A DNA stretch of 64,000 nt from positions 10,547-74,546 of the forward strand of contig JAKFVL010000010.1 in NCBI GenBank assembly GCA_021732215.1. Reading direction: 5' to 3'. Position 1 is the stretch's first letter. Every line of letters begins with the position of its first letter. Source of the stretch: Hyphomicrobiales bacterium (lineage in GTDB: Bacteria; Pseudomonadota; Alphaproteobacteria; Rhizobiales; Xanthobacteraceae). A model generated the notes under the pieces. It ran no database searches and was not told the DNA's origin. It saw nothing but the letters and a program-made list of their open reading frames with translations. A program made the translations under genes and the position numbers. Below, in pieces: positions 19,254-25,442 of the stretch.

Positions 19254-19364
19254 TCGGGGATCGGTTGATGCCTTGACCCGGGCGCGCTACAGGAAGCGAC
19301 CGCTTCGCCGATCCGGGTCGTCGGGGTACTGAGAAATTCGAGTCAATTCTGTGTGGGAGCGAGA

Positions 19365-20414
19365 ATGGCGCGCAATGTCCTGATCCTTGGAGCCTCGTAT
19401 GGTTCCTTGCTGGCGACGAAGCTGTTGATGGCGGGTCACAACGTGACCCTGGTTTGCCGGAGGAATACCGCAGAACTCATCAATCGCGATGGCACCGAAG
19501 TCCGTATCAAGCTGCGTGACGAGCCGGCGCACCGTTCCATCTTCTCCCGCGATCTGCCGGGGAAACTGGACGCGACCTCGCCCGACAAGGTCGACATCTC
19601 CCGTTACGACCTGGTTGCCCTTGCCATGCAGGAGCCGCAATACACCAACCACACGATCCGGGTTCTGATGATCAAGATCGCCGCCGCGGAGCTGCCGTGT
19701 CTTTCGATCATGAACATGCCGCCGTTGCCCTATCTCAAGCGGATCGAGGGGCTGGCGGATATGGATCTCGAGGAGGCCTATACCAATGCGCAGGTATGGG
19801 AACGCTTCAAGCCGGGACTGGTGACGCTGTGCTCGCCCGATCCGCAGGCCTTCCGTCCGCCGGAAGAAGCGGCAAACGTGCTTCACGTCGGTCTGCCGAC
19901 AAATTTCAAGGCCGCGACTTTTGCGGATGAAAAGCACAACAAGCTGCTTCGGGAGCTGGAAGCGGACATCGATGCGGTGACGCTGGACGGCCACGACGTT
20001 CCCGTGAAGCTGAAAGTGTTCGATTCGCTGTTCGTTCCGTTGGCGAAATGGTCGATGCTGTTGACCGGCAATTATCGCTGCATCACGCCGAACGATCCGC
20101 AGTCGATCCGCGATGCGGTGCACGGCGACGTGAAACTCTCGCAGGCCATCTACAATCATGTCGATGCCGTTGCCCGGCGTCTGGGCGCCGACCCGCAGGA
20201 TCAGGTGCCTTTCGAGAAGTACGCCAAGGCGGCGGAGAGCCTGCTGAAACCTTCATCGGCTGCTCGCGCGGTGGCAAGCGGAGCGCCCTTTATCGAGCGG
20301 GTCGATCTGCTGGTGAAGCTGATCTCGCATGAGCTCGGCATGCCCAATGCCGACATCGATCGCACGGTTCAGGTCGTCGATCAAAAATTGAGCGAGAAGA
20401 TCGTCGAGGGCTGA
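19365..20414 (+). CDS. ketopantoate reductase (ApbA/PanE)-family NAD(P)-binding oxidoreductase
   Basis: N-terminal Rossmann motif NVLILGASYGSLLATKLLMAGHNVTLVCR; about 349 aa. Substrate specificity unknown. Confidence 0.65.
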   Translation: MARNVLILGASYGSLLATKLLMAGHNVTLVCRRNTAELINRDGTEVRIKLRDEPAHRSIFSRDLPGKLDATSPDKVDISRYDLVALAMQEPQYTNHTIRVLMIKIAAAELPCLSIMNMPPLPYLKRIEGLADMDLEEAYTNAQVWERFKPGLVTLCSPDPQAFRPPEEAANVLHVGLPTNFKAATFADEKHNKLLRELEADIDAVTLDGHDVPVKLKVFDSLFVPLAKWSMLLTGNYRCITPNDPQSIRDAVHGDVKLSQAIYNHVDAVARRLGADPQDQVPFEKYAKAAESLLKPSSAARAVASGAPFIERVDLLVKLISHELGMPNADIDRTVQVVDQKLSEKIVEG

Positions 20415-20446: not shown

Positions 20447-21472
20447 TCAACGGTGATGAATGTGCCGCTCTTCGTCGTCGTCCGGCTGCGAGCGTTCGTA
20501 TGCAGCATCCCATCTGGCAAGAGCCGGAAGACCGCCGTTGGCCATCCGTAGCTGCCTGAGCGCGACCCGGATGTTGCTCAAGGTATGCCGCCCGGCGACG
20601 GACATGTCGGCGGGGTCGCGGTCCTGCTCGACAGCGATGCGGACCTGATCCTTCAGATTTGCGAAGCGGCTATTGCCATACCGGCGCAGAATCGCCTCGA
20701 ACGAGGTGTATTTTTCCGGATCGTATGGACTGTCATGGCCGTTCGCATCCTTGGCGGGATGCGCAGGATAGAAGTAGCCGCACGGAACAAGCCCATCGGG
20801 GATCGGCTCCGTTGCCGAGTGGGTGCGGCGATGACGAAGCAAGTTTGGCAGGACGTGGGTATGCGGTCCTTCCGGACTTTTGCCATCGGCAGGCGGGATC
20901 GGCTGATACACTTCGAGCCGGCCGATCCGGGTCACGAACACGCGGTGCGGGCTGTGCGCCAGAATGAGTTGGCCCGCCGGGTTGCCCGGCGCAAACGTTT
21001 CCTGACCGCAATGGGCGCGAAGTTGTTCGGCCAGAGCGGGGTCGCCGGTCCGCACGCAGACATCGACCTGCCAGGTATCGAGTCCGATATCGAACAGGAT
21101 GTCGTTGCGGTTGCCGGGATTGAGCGCGTCATGGTCAGGGCCGAGCTCGGTCAGTGTCGCGCGGTGGTTCATCGCGCTGCGATCGCGGGGCAAGCAGATG
21201 GCAACGCGCTGGCTCCAGCTCAGGCGCGTCGCGGTTTCAAACGCAAAAAGCTGCATGCCCTCGTGCGAGTCGAGCCGAACTCCACCTCGGTTGGTCATCA
21301 CCGAGTGGTGGTCCATTTCCGCCGCTTCGCCGATATCGCGCATGAACTCGCCGATCGCGCCGAATGTGCCGAGGCTCCATTGCGTTTTCGGATTGGCGAG
21401 TTGATCGGACAGGCAGGCGGCTTCGTCGGTACCCATCGTTGTTTCCGTGCAGGTCATGCTATACTTCTTCAT
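20447..21472 (-). CDS. conserved hypothetical protein (His-rich segment HTHVLPNLLRHRRTH), last gene of the NHase-like gene string
   Basis: Long ORF 20447..21490 with good codon bias. The start is uncertain because the 5' end overlaps a palindromic repeat; MKKYSM at 21472 chosen. Confidence 0.65.
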   Translation of the reverse strand: MKKYSMTCTETTMGTDEAACLSDQLANPKTQWSLGTFGAIGEFMRDIGEAAEMDHHSVMTNRGGVRLDSHEGMQLFAFETATRLSWSQRVAICLPRDRSAMNHRATLTELGPDHDALNPGNRNDILFDIGLDTWQVDVCVRTGDPALAEQLRAHCGQETFAPGNPAGQLILAHSPHRVFVTRIGRLEVYQPIPPADGKSPEGPHTHVLPNLLRHRRTHSATEPIPDGLVPCGYFYPAHPAKDANGHDSPYDPEKYTSFEAILRRYGNSRFANLKDQVRIAVEQDRDPADMSVAGRHTLSNIRVALRQLRMANGGLPALARWDAAYERSQPDDDEERHIHHR

Positions 21473-21474
21473 TC

Positions 21475-21542
21475 GGGCATGATCTTCCAAAACCGGAATC
21501 CATCCCGGATCAAGTCCGGGACCGGCTTTTTCCGGATCATGC
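21475..21542. repeat. family-A palindromic element, longer variant, copy 2
   Basis: GGGCATGATCTTCCAAAACCGG...CCGGCTTTTTCCGGATCATGC with the inner hairpin CCCGGATCAAGTCCGGG. Confidence 0.7.
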
Positions 21543-22118
21543 TTTTGGCAGCGATACGCCGATCATGTCACCAAGCGTGACGATCCTGGCGAGTTGATCC
21601 TCCGACCAGCCGTCGGTGCCCGCCGGGCGTTGCGGCAGCACCATCCATCGGTAGTCGGCCGTTGAGTCGACGACATTGATCTTGATGTTGTCAGCCAGCG
21701 TGGTGTTGAATTCCGCGAGCAAGCCGCGCGGATCACGAACAGCACGCGATCGATAGGTCGCCGACTTGAACCAATAGGGCGGGTAGCCCAGGACGGCCCG
21801 GGGATAACAGCTGCACAGCGTGCACACGACCAGATTGTGGACGTTGCCCGCATTCTCCAGCACGCCAAGCGGCGGCATGCCCAGCATGGGGATACCGATC
21901 ATCTCGGCAGCGCGGGTGCCGTTGGCCAGCATGAGCGACTTATAAGCAGGATCGAGCCAGGCTTTCGCGACCATTCGCGCGCCCTGTCCGGGGTTGGCGC
22001 TGTCGGTCGACGCCATCTGGGCGACGAGTTCGTCGTCGGTCAGAATCTCCTTGTGCTTGAGGACTCGCAACACGGCTGCAAGCACGTCCTCACTCTTGAA
22101 ATCTTGAAACAGGGTCAT
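21537..22118 (-). CDS. nitrile hydratase alpha-subunit-like protein (Co-type CTLCSC metal site)
   Basis: VVCTLCSCYPRAVLGYPPYWFKSATYRSRAV is the NHase alpha active-site region; Thr after the first Cys is the Co-type signature. ATG at 22118 forms an ATGA overlap with the upstream ORF. Confidence 0.88.
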   Translation of the reverse strand: MTLFQDFKSEDVLAAVLRVLKHKEILTDDELVAQMASTDSANPGQGARMVAKAWLDPAYKSLMLANGTRAAEMIGIPMLGMPPLGVLENAGNVHNLVVCTLCSCYPRAVLGYPPYWFKSATYRSRAVRDPRGLLAEFNTTLADNIKINVVDSTADYRWMVLPQRPAGTDGWSEDQLARIVTLGDMIGVSLPKA

Positions 22119-22399
22119 CGCCGTTCCAGCCAATGTTCGTAGACTTCAACCACGACTGTGTCCGTATCCTTGTTTTCACCCGGCCAGATATCGTTGAGCG
22201 GGAAAGCGACATGATACAGTTCTCGCAGCGGGGCCGGCCGCGCGAATGCAAGGTCTTCAGGGTTCGGGAAATCGCCGAGATGCCGGACGATATGCCCCGT
22301 CTTGCCGCGGATGTAGTGCGGAGAGCGGATATGGACCTGGCCGCGGGTCTCGGGCCAATCGTTCTTGACATGAACCTTGTCGCCGGGCGCAAACATCAT
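22115..22399 (-). CDS. nitrile hydratase beta-subunit C-terminal (SH3-like) half, encoded as a separate ORF
   Basis: 94 aa. FAPGDKVHVKN...HIRSPHYIRGKTGHIV...LYHVAFPLNDIWP...VVVEVYEHWLE aligns by eye with the C-terminal domain of NHase beta. Confidence 0.8.
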   Translation of the reverse strand: MMFAPGDKVHVKNDWPETRGQVHIRSPHYIRGKTGHIVRHLGDFPNPEDLAFARPAPLRELYHVAFPLNDIWPGENKDTDTVVVEVYEHWLERR

Positions 22400-22728
22400 C
22401 GCGCGTTTTCCAATGCCGATCGGATTTCAGCTTCCGTCAGAACGCCCTTCTTCAGCAGGTTGGCGACGATCGATCTTATCCAGCGATTGTAATAACCGAG
22501 CCGGTGATACTCCTCTTCCGGCAGAGCCTCGAGTTCCTTGCGCAGCTCATCGACAACCATAATATTCTTGCGGCCTAGGATGAGGCGCAGCGCGTCAACC
22601 TCGCGGTCGAAAACCGACAGCGTGTGCGGATCGATATCGATCGGCTCGCACATGTACTTGCGGCTTCCGCCGATCGAATGATGAGGCCGAGCTTCCTTTG
22701 TTTCATCCTGAATGGGGTGGTCGTTCAC
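22396..22728 (-). CDS. nitrile hydratase beta-subunit N-terminal half, encoded as a separate ORF (alternatively an NHase accessory/activator-like protein)
   Basis: 110 aa. HSIGG (the HDxGG position), VVDELRKELE (the DExR position), YYNRWIRSIVANLLKKGVLT (the YYE(H/R)W...KG position). ATGA overlap with the next ORF. Confidence 0.75.
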   Translation of the reverse strand: MNDHPIQDETKEARPHHSIGGSRKYMCEPIDIDPHTLSVFDREVDALRLILGRKNIMVVDELRKELEALPEEEYHRLGYYNRWIRSIVANLLKKGVLTEAEIRSALENAR

Positions 22729-22857
22729 GATTGCCTCGGTTCAATCTCGAAGGAGATGGCTCGGACGGACTCGCCGAAACTTCTGAAACCCGATGGATAT
22801 TCTGGTCTCTCTGGCCGGGGAGTCAACCGAGGTTGCACAAATACGAGTTCACGAAAC

Positions 22858-23823
22858 TCAATTGATCTTGATGTCCGCGGACTTGATGACATCGGCCCAG
22901 AGTCTGATCTCGGCATCGATCCGTGCGCGCAGGTCTTCAGGCGAGGAGGGCGCAGCGTCGATCAGTTGCACCTTCAGCTTTTCGCGTACCTCTTGCTTGC
23001 CGAGAATCTCACGGACGTCGGCATTGATCGCCTCGATGATGGCGCGCGGGGTGCCGCCCGGCGCGATCAGCGCGTTCCAGGCGTCCGACTCCACGTCGAT
23101 ACCGCTTTCCTTGAGCGTCGGCACGTTGGGCAGATGCGGCGAGCGTTTCGACGTCGAGACGGCGAGAATTTTCACCGCGCCAGTCGCGAGCTGCGGAGTG
23201 ACCGAAATCGCCGGGAGGCAGGCCGCCTGGACGTCGCCGCGAATCACCGCGGTGACCGCCTGCGGCGACCCGGCGTAGGGGATGTGCAGCAGCTTTGCGC
23301 CGGCGCGTTGCGCGATGGCTTCCATGGTGAGATGCGACAGCGAGCCGATGCCGATCGAGCCGAACGCGACGCTGGTGTGATTGCGCTTCAGCAATGCGAG
23401 AAATTCCGCGACCGAGTTGACGCCGAGACTCAACGGCACCACCAGCACGCTGGGCAGCGTGGTCAGCATCGAGACCGGTGCGATGTCCTTTGCCGGATCG
23501 TAAGGCAGCTTTGAGAACAGCAGCGTGTTGATGGCGAGCGGCCCACCGAGCGAAATGCCGATCGTCGTGCCGTCCGGCTCGGCCTTGGCCACCGCATCGG
23601 TTCCGGTGTTGCCGCCTGCGCCCGTGCGATTCTCCACGATGACGTTGATGCCCGGATGTTTCGCCTGCAGGTTTTCGGCGAGAATTCGTCCCACGATGTC
23701 CGGCGTCGAGCCCGCGGCATAGGGCACGATCAAGCGCACCGGCTTTACCGGCCACGTTTGCGCAGCGGCCGGGCCGGCAGTGGAAACCGCGAGCAAAGCG
23801 AAAAAGGCGAAAAGGCGTTTCAT
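22858..23823 (-). CDS. Bug family (TctC-like) tripartite tricarboxylate transporter substrate-binding protein
   Basis: 321 aa. Signal peptide, then WPVKPVRLIVPYAAGSTPDIVGRILAE...NRTGAGGNTG, typical of Bug/TctC proteins. Confidence 0.9.
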   Translation of the reverse strand: MKRLFAFFALLAVSTAGPAAAQTWPVKPVRLIVPYAAGSTPDIVGRILAENLQAKHPGINVIVENRTGAGGNTGTDAVAKAEPDGTTIGISLGGPLAINTLLFSKLPYDPAKDIAPVSMLTTLPSVLVVPLSLGVNSVAEFLALLKRNHTSVAFGSIGIGSLSHLTMEAIAQRAGAKLLHIPYAGSPQAVTAVIRGDVQAACLPAISVTPQLATGAVKILAVSTSKRSPHLPNVPTLKESGIDVESDAWNALIAPGGTPRAIIEAINADVREILGKQEVREKLKVQLIDAAPSSPEDLRARIDAEIRLWADVIKSADIKIN

Positions 23824-24593: not shown

Positions 24594-25442
24594 ATGTCTG
24601 TTCAGAACAAGACCAAGCGTAAAACGGCCCCGGACATTCTGGCCCGCAAGGGCGGCGATCCGATCGTGATGCTGACGTCGTATCACGCGCATACGGCGTC
24701 GCTGGTCGATCGCTATTGCGATGTCATTCTCGTCGGCGACTCGCTCGGCAATGTGATGCACGGCTTCGAGACCACCGTGCCGGTGACGCTCGACATGATG
24801 ATCCTGCAGGGGCATGCGGTGATGCGCGGATCGCAGCAGGCGCTTGTGGTTGTCGACATGCCGTTCGGCTCCTACGAAGCGTCGAAGGAACAGGCGTTTC
24901 ATTCCGCGGTCCGTATCCTGAAGGAGACCCATTGCGGTGCGGTCAAGCTCGAGGGTGGCGCGCGCATGGCGGAAACCATCGAGTTTCTGACCACGCGGGG
25001 CATTCCGGTGATGGGTCACATCGGCCTCACGCCGCAGTCGATCAACACGCTCGGCAGTTTCAAGTCGCAGGGCAAGGAGGAGGGTGCGCAAATCGCCCGC
25101 GGCGACAATGTCACCGGCCCGATCCAGGACGACGCGCGCGCGGTTGCGCAAGCAGGGGCGTTCTCGGTGGTGATCGAAGCCGTCGCCGAACCGCTTGCGC
25201 GCCGCGTTACCGAAATCATCCCGATCCCGACCATCGGTATCGGCGCAAGTGCTGCCTGCGACGGGCAGGTGCTGGTGCTGGAAGACATGCTTGGGCTGTC
25301 GGCATGGGTGCCGAAATTCGTCAAGCGCTACGGCGATCTCGGTCCGGGTATCGAGAAGGCCATTCAAGACTACGCCAGCGAGGTTCGTTCGCGGGCGTTT
25401 CCCGGCCCCGAGCACGTCTATGGGTTGAAGCCGAAGGGCTGA
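24594..25442 (+). CDS. panB: 3-methyl-2-oxobutanoate hydroxymethyltransferase
   Basis: [14 protein letters not shown]...[14 protein letters not shown]...[10 protein letters not shown]...AVKLEGG...[14 protein letters not shown] are full-length PanB motifs. Confidence 0.93.

Follow-up and report, generated by a model that had tools for sequence, protein, structure and literature searches.

In the nearest described system, that of Streptomyces canus CGMCC 13662, a cobalt nitrile hydratase (NHase) is encoded by anhD-anhE-anhA, where AnhD corresponds to the N-terminal and AnhE to the C-terminal part of the beta subunit and no activator gene is present (PMC7329996). Besides being a subunit, AnhD has been described as acting as a self-subunit-swapping/metal chaperone, and the maturation of the enzyme has been worked out in vitro (PMC7329996). 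The other precedent with three subunits is ToyJKL (Nelp 2014, cited in PMC7329996). A locus of this type was identified in a stretch of 64,000 nucleotides (nt), referred to here as the window, of contig JAKFVL010000010.1 of a Hyphomicrobiales bacterium (assembly GCA_021732215.1, positions 10,547 to 74,546). Three overlapping open reading frames (ORFs) encode the N-terminal half (beta-N) and the C-terminal half (beta-C) of an NHase beta subunit and a catalytic alpha subunit, and a gene of the DUF6925 family lies directly downstream. On sequence comparison, the best explanation (given a probability of roughly 0.8) is that the locus encodes a cytoplasmic cobalt-type NHase of three polypeptides.

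The locus shares with S. canus AnhDEA the gene order betaN-betaC-alpha, the split at the linker, the motif CTLCSC and the lack of a P14K-type gene, while differing from it in having no His-rich alpha extension, in its DUF6925 gene, in its alphaproteobacterial host and in its chromosomal housekeeping setting. An initial annotation of the sequence had named thiocyanate hydrolase (SCNase) and ToyJKL as precedents; it missed the nearest one, AnhD-AnhE-AnhA, and overstated the novelty of the locus, as the split-beta architecture is neither rare nor undescribed. With the split already characterised in Streptomyces, what is new is the recurrent association of DUF6925 with cobalt (Co)-NHase operons and with the B12 regulon.

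The three nitrile hydratase subunits

All three ORFs are located on the minus strand. The gene of beta-N (22396..22728; 110 amino acids, aa) starts with GTG, 5 nt downstream of a GAGG Shine-Dalgarno sequence, and its product matches the N-terminal helical half of NHase beta (Pfam PF21006, NHase_beta_N; E 1e-11, 45 bits, cutoff 21.5). It is followed by beta-C (22115..22399; 94 aa), corresponding to the SH3-like C-terminal half (PF02211, NHase_beta_C; E 8e-19, 68 bits, cutoff 27.7), and by alpha (21537..22118; 193 aa counted from ATG, the longest mechanical ORF beginning at a TTG at 22133), matching NHase_alpha (PF02979; E 5e-69, 232 bits, cutoff 27.2). Stop and start codons overlap as ATGA between beta-N and beta-C (22396-22399) and between beta-C and alpha (22115-22118), and by means of these overlaps the three genes would be translated as a coupled unit. 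The initial annotation had described these same-strand ORFs and overlaps correctly; the motifs it quoted (CTLCSC, DELR and HIR) are present in alpha, beta-N and beta-C, respectively, and the check it proposed with NHase alpha and beta profile models places all three ORFs above the Pfam cutoffs.

The two small ORFs are considered to be halves of one beta subunit, because the NCBIfam model of the full-length protein (TIGR03888) is covered piecewise by both, at positions 23-95 by beta-N and 138-225 by beta-C, the two halves scoring 43 and 68 bits (cutoff 152). Pfam and TIGR03888 agree in this, and both bear out the assignment of the 110-aa and 94-aa ORFs first made from the sequence alone. Coverage of TIGR03888 and alignment also showed that a beta linker of approximately 40 residues is absent between beta-N and beta-C. 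Residues retained by beta-N are Arg63 (of DELR; equivalent to betaArg52/56), Tyr79, Tyr80 and Trp83, and by beta-C, Arg25 (of HIR; equivalent to betaArg141/157). Arg63 and Arg25 align with the catalytic Arg pair of canonical beta, and Tyr79 and Trp83 with residues of its pocket. Beta-N and beta-C together would then stand in for the usual beta subunit of approximately 220 aa, each providing one arginine predicted to hydrogen-bond the oxidised cysteines of alpha; beta-N would in addition line the substrate pocket with its Tyr/Trp wall.

The metal-binding/catalytic motif of alpha, Cys99-Thr-Leu-Cys102-Ser103-Cys104 (21807..21824, minus strand), lies in the sequence VVCTLCSCYP, with CTLCSC as residues 99-104 and Tyr-Pro-Arg following; the definition of the Cys-cluster motif was taken from PMC7329996. 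The Thr and the Tyr of CTLCSCY are the cobalt-type signature, unlike the Fe-type reference 2qdy_A, which reads VCSLCSCT, so that the cobalt-type assignment of the initial annotation, argued from the Thr, is upheld. Alpha shares approximately 50% identity with the solved alpha chains of Co-type NHases (4ob1/3qxe). As in NHases that have been characterised, alpha would hold cobalt at its Cys-Thr-Leu-Cys-Ser-Cys site, the second and third cysteines being converted to sulfinic and sulfenic acid, and by homology the enzyme would hydrate a nitrile to the amide with a Co(III) Cys-cluster. The canonical Co-type NHases of P. putida, Rhodococcus J1 and Klebsiella (approximately 43-50% alpha identity) share the metal site, alpha fold, beta Arg pair and Tyr/Trp pocket. 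Unlike the window, they have an undivided beta of approximately 220 aa in which the linker is present, their accessory protein has a gene of its own, Trp follows CSCYP, and an amidase and a cobalt transporter are usually encoded next to them.

Some results weigh against this reading. Alpha scored 220.7 bits with TIGR01323, under the equivalog cutoff of 249.85, and strict functional equivalence to classical NHases is therefore not guaranteed; AlphaFold prediction of beta-N alone gave low confidence (predicted local distance difference test, pLDDT, 58.8); and no conserved neighbour indicates the substrate, the flanks of Acetobacteraceae-type relatives consisting of housekeeping genes. Judged from its sequence, the window enzyme is a divergent subgroup, with membership of the NHase family holding despite the sub-equivalog scores.

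Conservation of the split was examined by a scan of one genome per species, in which at least 470 stretches encode a beta-N relative; the best 80 of these (the genome loci below) are mostly metagenome-assembled genomes (MAGs) of Acetobacteraceae/Rhodospirillales, plus Lichenihabitans. Three separate ORFs in the order betaN-betaC-alpha were identified in all 86 related loci carrying the three genes, none having a fused beta, so that orthologous loci do keep the split that the initial annotation had made a point to check. The spacing expected of a 4-nt overlap was seen at 48 beta-N/beta-C and 39 beta-C/alpha junctions of these 86 loci. An identical alpha occurs on 12 independent metagenome/MAG contigs with the split present in all. 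The beta-N homologues obtained by protein search (n=13, 53-92% identity) are all of 102-113 aa, and when 1.84 billion cluster representatives were searched with a beta-N profile, 902 matched at E <= 1e-3; among the best 149 representatives, 123 are of 160 aa or fewer and only 10 are of full-beta size. In comparison with L187, a relative whose alpha is 93% identical, the ratio of nonsynonymous to synonymous substitution (dN/dS) is 0.088 (beta-N), 0.037 (beta-C) and 0.049 (alpha). The NHase ORFs are under strong purifying selection.

These results bear on whether the locus could be a frameshifted pseudogene, that is, a normal beta gene broken by mutation or sequencing error. The two small ORFs do abut exactly and jointly span one beta model, and a related contig (L007) does have assembly-type frame errors. 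However, the split is found in 86/86 loci, on the 12 contigs with identical alpha and in finished RefSeq plasmids, the linker of approximately 40 residues is deleted rather than frameshifted, and dN/dS is 0.04-0.09 in both halves of beta. Owing to this conservation of the split in relatives and the purifying selection, the pseudogene reading is regarded as excluded. A betaC-alpha fusion of 299 aa called on L007 (2446-3671) was also set aside: it is most likely a long-read assembly frameshift, with a garbled beta-N and matches in different frames. The inference of a three-subunit, Co-type enzyme of the NHase family with a truly split beta, with which the initial annotation had concluded, is supported by these sequence comparisons.

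The same annotation had offered as an alternative that the 110-aa ORF is an activator only (a self-subunit-swapping chaperone of P14K/NhlE type), the mature enzyme then consisting of alpha and beta-C. Activators are distant beta-N homologues of like size, and AnhD of S. canus does have chaperone activity (PMC7329996). Nonetheless, phmmer comparison of beta-N gave E-values of 6e-25 to 1e-10 with other stand-alone beta-N proteins and of 2e-7 to 1e-5 with canonical beta subunits, as against only 0.02-0.17 with three P14K-type accessory proteins. The catalytic position is Arg in beta-N and in all beta subunits, being Gln or Val in the accessory proteins, and the Arg of DELR is kept together with the Tyr-Tyr-x-x-Trp pocket motif. 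In NCBIfam, beta-N matches a single model at E <= 0.01, that of nitrile hydratase subunit beta (TIGR03888). Furthermore, the ScNHase holoenzyme of S. canus is AnhD2E2A2 (PMC7329996). Beta-N is taken to be a genuine half-beta because it is nearer to beta subunits than to accessory proteins, retains the Arg and matches only TIGR03888, and the activator-only alternative is quite improbable. By analogy with S. canus AnhD, which is subunit and chaperone at once, that alternative may nevertheless not be wholly wrong in spirit. A P14K-type activator would be unneeded in the window, as in AnhDEA, because beta-N would itself double as the self-subunit-swapping/metal chaperone.

Residues 27-35 of beta-N (22624-22650) contain the motif C-x-x-x-D-x-x-P-H, formed by Cys27, Asp31, Pro34 and His35. 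It is invariant in 14/14 aligned beta-N sequences of the window clade and absent from Agrobacterium rubi, Streptomyces and canonical beta. It could be a metal-binding patch relevant to a chaperone role.

Phylogeny of alpha and related operons

A bootstrapped neighbour-joining tree of alpha sequences was labelled by operon architecture, with Streptomyces sp. NBC_01176 as proxy for the Streptomyces split type in place of S. canus and S. rimosus. The alpha of the window grouped with twelve genome-locus sequences (mostly of Acetobacteraceae type) and A. rubi in a clade with 100% support, all of split type. The split types of Streptomyces, Burkholderia and Rhizobium formed a separate group (96%), canonical two-subunit alphas a third (89%), which includes an Fe-type reference identical to 2qdy_A, and scnC-annotated proteins a fourth. 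Identities of the window alpha are 58-67% to its genome-locus clade-mates, 51-53% to A. rubi, 46% to the Streptomyces split type and 40-43% to the canonical enzymes in the tree. Common descent with the Streptomyces split enzymes, in the form of a shared alpha clade, was not recovered in this tree. The window alpha is placed outside the ordinary two-subunit NHases, as the initial annotation had anticipated, in a distinct and uncharacterised clade of Alphaproteobacteria whose sampled members are all split.

The order betaN-betaC-alpha also occurs in finished RefSeq plasmids of Agrobacterium rubi, Streptomyces sp. NBC_01176 and Planktothrix agardhii. The closest annotated relative is A. rubi pW2_73_1, with overlapping genes betaN(97)-betaC(105)-alpha(221) and an alpha of the same clade; unlike the window, it is a plasmid locus directly after an amidase, its alpha has a His-rich N-terminus and it has no DUF6925. 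In Streptomyces sp. NBC_01176, whose alpha is approximately 46% identical to that of the window and in a different clade, the split operon has an aquaporin and HoxN alongside. A permuted order, betaC-alpha-betaN, was seen in Burkholderia sp. PAMC 26561 and Rhizobium sp. AB2/73, beside HoxN or CbtAB. The annotation pipeline PGAP labels the halves 'SH3-like domain-containing protein', with one NBC_01176 beta-N labelled 'nitrile hydratase'. On the Burkholderia sp. PAMC 26561 plasmid, the beta-C (L093, 1838-2308) possesses a 60-residue N-terminal extension with a twin-arginine-like signal, SRRSWLKALAASGAAVAMG, which hints at a Tat-exported, periplasmic NHase.

The residue after CSCYP separates split-type from canonical alphas. 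The sequence CTLCSCYPR was found in 78 of the 79 motif occurrences of split-type loci (the other having FPR), while CTLCSCYPW was found in 11/11 canonical loci; Arg is also present after CTLCSCYP in the window lineage, in the five plasmid split types and in scnC-annotated proteins. In the window alpha, Y-P-R are residues 105-107 (21798-21806), Arg107 standing where canonical enzymes have Trp. This Arg-for-Trp exchange beside the metal site may serve as a simple sequence marker of the split class, and the Arg is a candidate determinant of specificity or assembly. Literature searches on Arg136 of SCNase and on NHases of Acetobacteraceae found nothing relevant. His-rich N-terminal extensions of alpha (e.g. 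HDHDHDHHHDHDH) were observed in the split types L090, L091, L092, L093 and L095, and also in L104, a canonical operon linked to DUF6925. The alphas of the window (N-terminus at 22059-22118) and of Acetobacteraceae type (192-200 aa) have no such extension.

Thiocyanate hydrolase, in which three subunits hydrolyse SCN- to COS and NH3, has to be considered as the activity of the window enzyme. ScnB-ScnA-ScnC of Thiobacillus thioparus (2dd4) has the same N-half, C-half, catalytic gene order, contains cobalt with a Cys cluster and has Arg after CSCYP, as do scnC-annotated proteins; the top PDB match of the window beta-C is moreover the SCNase alpha chain (2dd4_A, E 2e-8). In contrast to the window, SCNase is built of larger subunits (126- and 243-aa chains), and the window alpha falls outside the scnC group, in a separate clade. 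With TIGR03887, the window alpha scored 171.7 bits against a cutoff of 291.45, which is below its score with the NHase model, and it is without the insertion of approximately 11 residues found in SCNase gamma (query 39-192 aligned with 2dd4_C 57-221). Beta-N scarcely matches scnC-associated beta proteins (E 0.2-0.6), and there are no sulfur-oxidation or COS-related genes among the scanned flanking genes. An SCNase at this locus is accordingly very improbable. Separately, in the plasmids of Azospirillum ramasamyi (L097, 1524-2375) and Roseomonas marmotae (L098, 1433-2284), the scnC-annotated gene is preceded by a 283-aa 'SH3-like' protein which appears to be a fused beta-N and beta-C, the opposite of the classical SCNase split; HupE/UreJ or CbtAB genes are located near these scnC-annotated genes.

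A nitrile hydratase resembling ToyJKL, acting on toyocamycin or preQ0-type nitriles, is the other reading that the three-subunit form brings to mind. ToyJKL of Streptomyces rimosus likewise consists of three polypeptides, two of them small and equivalent to halves of beta, with sizes similar to those of the window halves. ToyJKL belongs to a gene cluster for a deazapurine antibiotic; the window is a housekeeping region, and its scanned flanking genes include none for deazapurine biosynthesis. The 46% identity of the window alpha to the Streptomyces split-type alpha, which belongs to a different clade, and the gene order toyJ-K-L, in which alpha comes first, also argue against this reading, whose likelihood is minimal. 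A cytoplasmic NHase of the cobalt type is preferred to both.

DUF6925 as a possible fourth component

The gene directly downstream of alpha (20447..21490, minus strand) encodes a protein of family DUF6925 (Pfam PF21973, E 6e-115), the match spanning positions 4-300 of the 300 in the profile. Its longest ORF (347 aa) begins with TTG at 21490, and gene-caller starts on identical contigs lie at an ATG at 21472 (341 aa) or at 21436 (329 aa). Residues invariant throughout the family include Cys99, Asp119, Asp134, Asp143, His210, His212, His224, His244 and Lys280; the C-terminal tail is acidic and His-rich, and no signal peptide was seen by eye. The AlphaFold model is confident (pLDDT 83.9; predicted template modelling score, pTM, 0.83). 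Foldseek with this model found no match in the PDB (best E 0.026, template modelling score, TM, approximately 0.1), nor did a profile search against PDB sequences, and a literature search found no mention of the family. The initial annotation had overlooked this gene.

It is likely that DUF6925 is functionally linked to the window NHase, in which case its product would be a fourth functional component of the unit. The other view is that the adjacency is accidental and the operon consists of the three NHase genes only. Several facts tell against a link. None of the 80 genome loci in this NHase clade has DUF6925, nor does L188, so that split NHases as a whole do not depend on it; 46-100 nt with a hairpin separate alpha from DUF6925 in the window, and co-transcription is unproven; and two members of the DUF6925 clade, L105 and L106, are not beside NHase genes. 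In L187, however, whose alpha is 93% identical, betaN-betaC-alpha-DUF6925 is intact in a completely different genomic context, all flanking genes differing from those of the window. There the stop codon of alpha and the start codon of DUF6925 overlap (TGATG), and dN/dS of DUF6925 between the two loci is 0.113. An NHase alpha of a different class is immediately upstream of DUF6925 in 13/73 informative metagenome loci and in L104, and the window DUF6925 falls in a subclade with genes from canonical operons (56/60 bootstraps). Accidental adjacency is on this evidence unlikely.

The context of the family was sampled in 80 metagenome loci with relatives, plus one look-up (L104); NHase alpha was upstream of DUF6925 in 13 of the 73 metagenome loci with usable upstream sequence. 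The order nthA - DUF6925 - nthB (full-length) - P14K-like accessory was identified in 14 canonical Co-type loci (L104, L107, L109, L111, L112, L115-L117, L123, L132, L133, L143, L179 and L185), and four nthA-DUF6925-nthB genes belong to the subclade of the window gene. In two of these operons, a gene for a CsoR/RcnR-family repressor (PF02583, E 1e-21; L117 2262-2618 and L123 4465-4800, minus strand) is located between nthA and DUF6925, divergent from the latter. A further point against the proposed role is that these canonical operons with DUF6925 also keep a P14K-like accessory gene, from which it follows that DUF6925 is no simple replacement for the activator.

In its other setting, DUF6925 stands at the end of operons for a TonB-dependent receptor, substrate-binding protein, FecCD permease and ATPase, and in Phaeobacter it comes directly after cbiZ and overlaps it. 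A cobalamin riboswitch (RF00174) was found in 8/13 scanned corrinoid-import loci (57-143 bits), in seven of them upstream of the operon (L101 526-734, L102 1140-1339, L157 2109-2307, L162 1054-1257, L163 1-94, L167 2574-2775 and L178 37-235) and in L140 (7004-7207) downstream of DUF6925. Seven loci scored 126-143 bits, the score of 57 bits occurring where a contig end cuts the match. These riboswitches beside DUF6925-associated import operons place the family in the B12 regulon.

Cobalt is the common denominator of the two contexts of DUF6925, which favours a role in cobalt handling or maturation, and the protein is probably a fourth, cobalt-related component of the system. To go by context and sequence features, its most likely specific role would be to handle cobalt for alpha maturation, although this can be put forward only tentatively. 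It may in this way fill the cobalt-supply role that is missing from the window. The main rival, in view of the CbiZ neighbour and the missing amidase, is that DUF6925 is a new amidohydrolase completing the conversion of nitrile via amide to acid and NH3. An amidase gene is a usual part of NHase operons but is missing both here and from the canonical operons with DUF6925; the gene overlapped by DUF6925 in Phaeobacter, cbiZ, itself encodes an amidohydrolase; and Cys99, Lys280 and several Glu/Asp are invariant. On the other hand, a CsoR/RcnR metal-sensor gene adjoins DUF6925, the acidic His-rich tail and the invariant His210, His212, His224 and His244 do not speak for such an enzyme, and a gene placed between those of alpha and beta, with overlapping start and stop codons, is what one typically sees with maturation factors. 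The protein also has no similarity to CbiZ, by hhalign, or to any solved hydrolase fold. A hydrolase of this kind is rather doubtful, and a cobalt-related function continues to be preferred. A more specific proposal, that DUF6925 is a cobalt-trafficking/salvage protein with one subfamily serving Co-NHase maturation and the rest at the ends of corrinoid-import operons, is possible and leans towards the unlikely.

Genomic setting and significance

The window is a chromosomal housekeeping region (prfC, purF, radA, alr, dnaB, panB, der). A tblastn search of the whole 64-kb window detected no signature amidase, P14K-type accessory, HoxN/NicO/CbtAB, RcnR or CobW-like gene, and there is no second NHase within it; Rfam scanning of the entire window returned no family at gathering score (no tRNA, rRNA or riboswitch). 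A cobalt transporter is absent from the window, whereas HoxN or CbtAB is found beside split-type relatives on plasmids. The initial annotation had stated that no amidase, aldoxime dehydratase or activator gene is adjacent. This holds for the amidase and P14K; for aldoxime dehydratase, no such domain occurs among the Pfam-scanned flanking genes, no homology search for it having been made.

Upstream of beta-N there is an intergenic region of 129 nt (22729..22857, minus strand) which is likely to be the operon's own promoter region. A promoter scan gave a single, weak sigma-70-like match (22826-22799), no more than chance expectation. Beyond it lies a TctC gene (22858-23823) that is not part of the unit. 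TctC was rejected as a substrate-uptake partner, being missing from L187, where the four-gene unit is kept, from 80/80 genome loci and from L008. Acetobacteraceae-type flanks show synteny of an SH3-domain protein, MoeB and TrpS, and their neighbours are too sparse to serve as a clue to the substrate (a RidA-like protein in 9 loci, a CobW-like GTPase in 8). Convergent to DUF6925, a gene on the plus strand (19353-20414) encodes a protein of 353 aa whose only match is N-terminal, to the ApbA/PanE Rossmann domain (E 8.5e-5); panB (24594-25442, plus strand) is 4 kb from it, and a 53%-identical homologue of the protein is encoded 2.4 kb downstream of alpha in L050.

The split form defines large clades, relatives being encoded in at least 470 genome stretches and among thousands of metagenomic alpha sequences. 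As the window clade is found among housekeeping genes and no amidase is close by, its physiological role may differ from the classical catabolism of nitriles. The association with DUF6925 is a concrete, testable lead and is more interesting than the split itself: it is the first functional context for this family, whose predicted fold is confident and has no solved relative, and a testable handle on cobalt delivery to activator-less NHases. NHases are industrial biocatalysts that often mature poorly in heterologous hosts, a practical difficulty that would make a missing accessory gene important. If the cobalt-trafficking proposal is true, the four-gene unit would be a self-contained NHase in which cobalt is supplied or inserted through DUF6925 rather than by a P14K-type activator or HoxN/CbtAB, and the B12 regulon would be linked to non-corrin cobalt enzymes, possibly by cobalt released or handed over from imported corrinoids.

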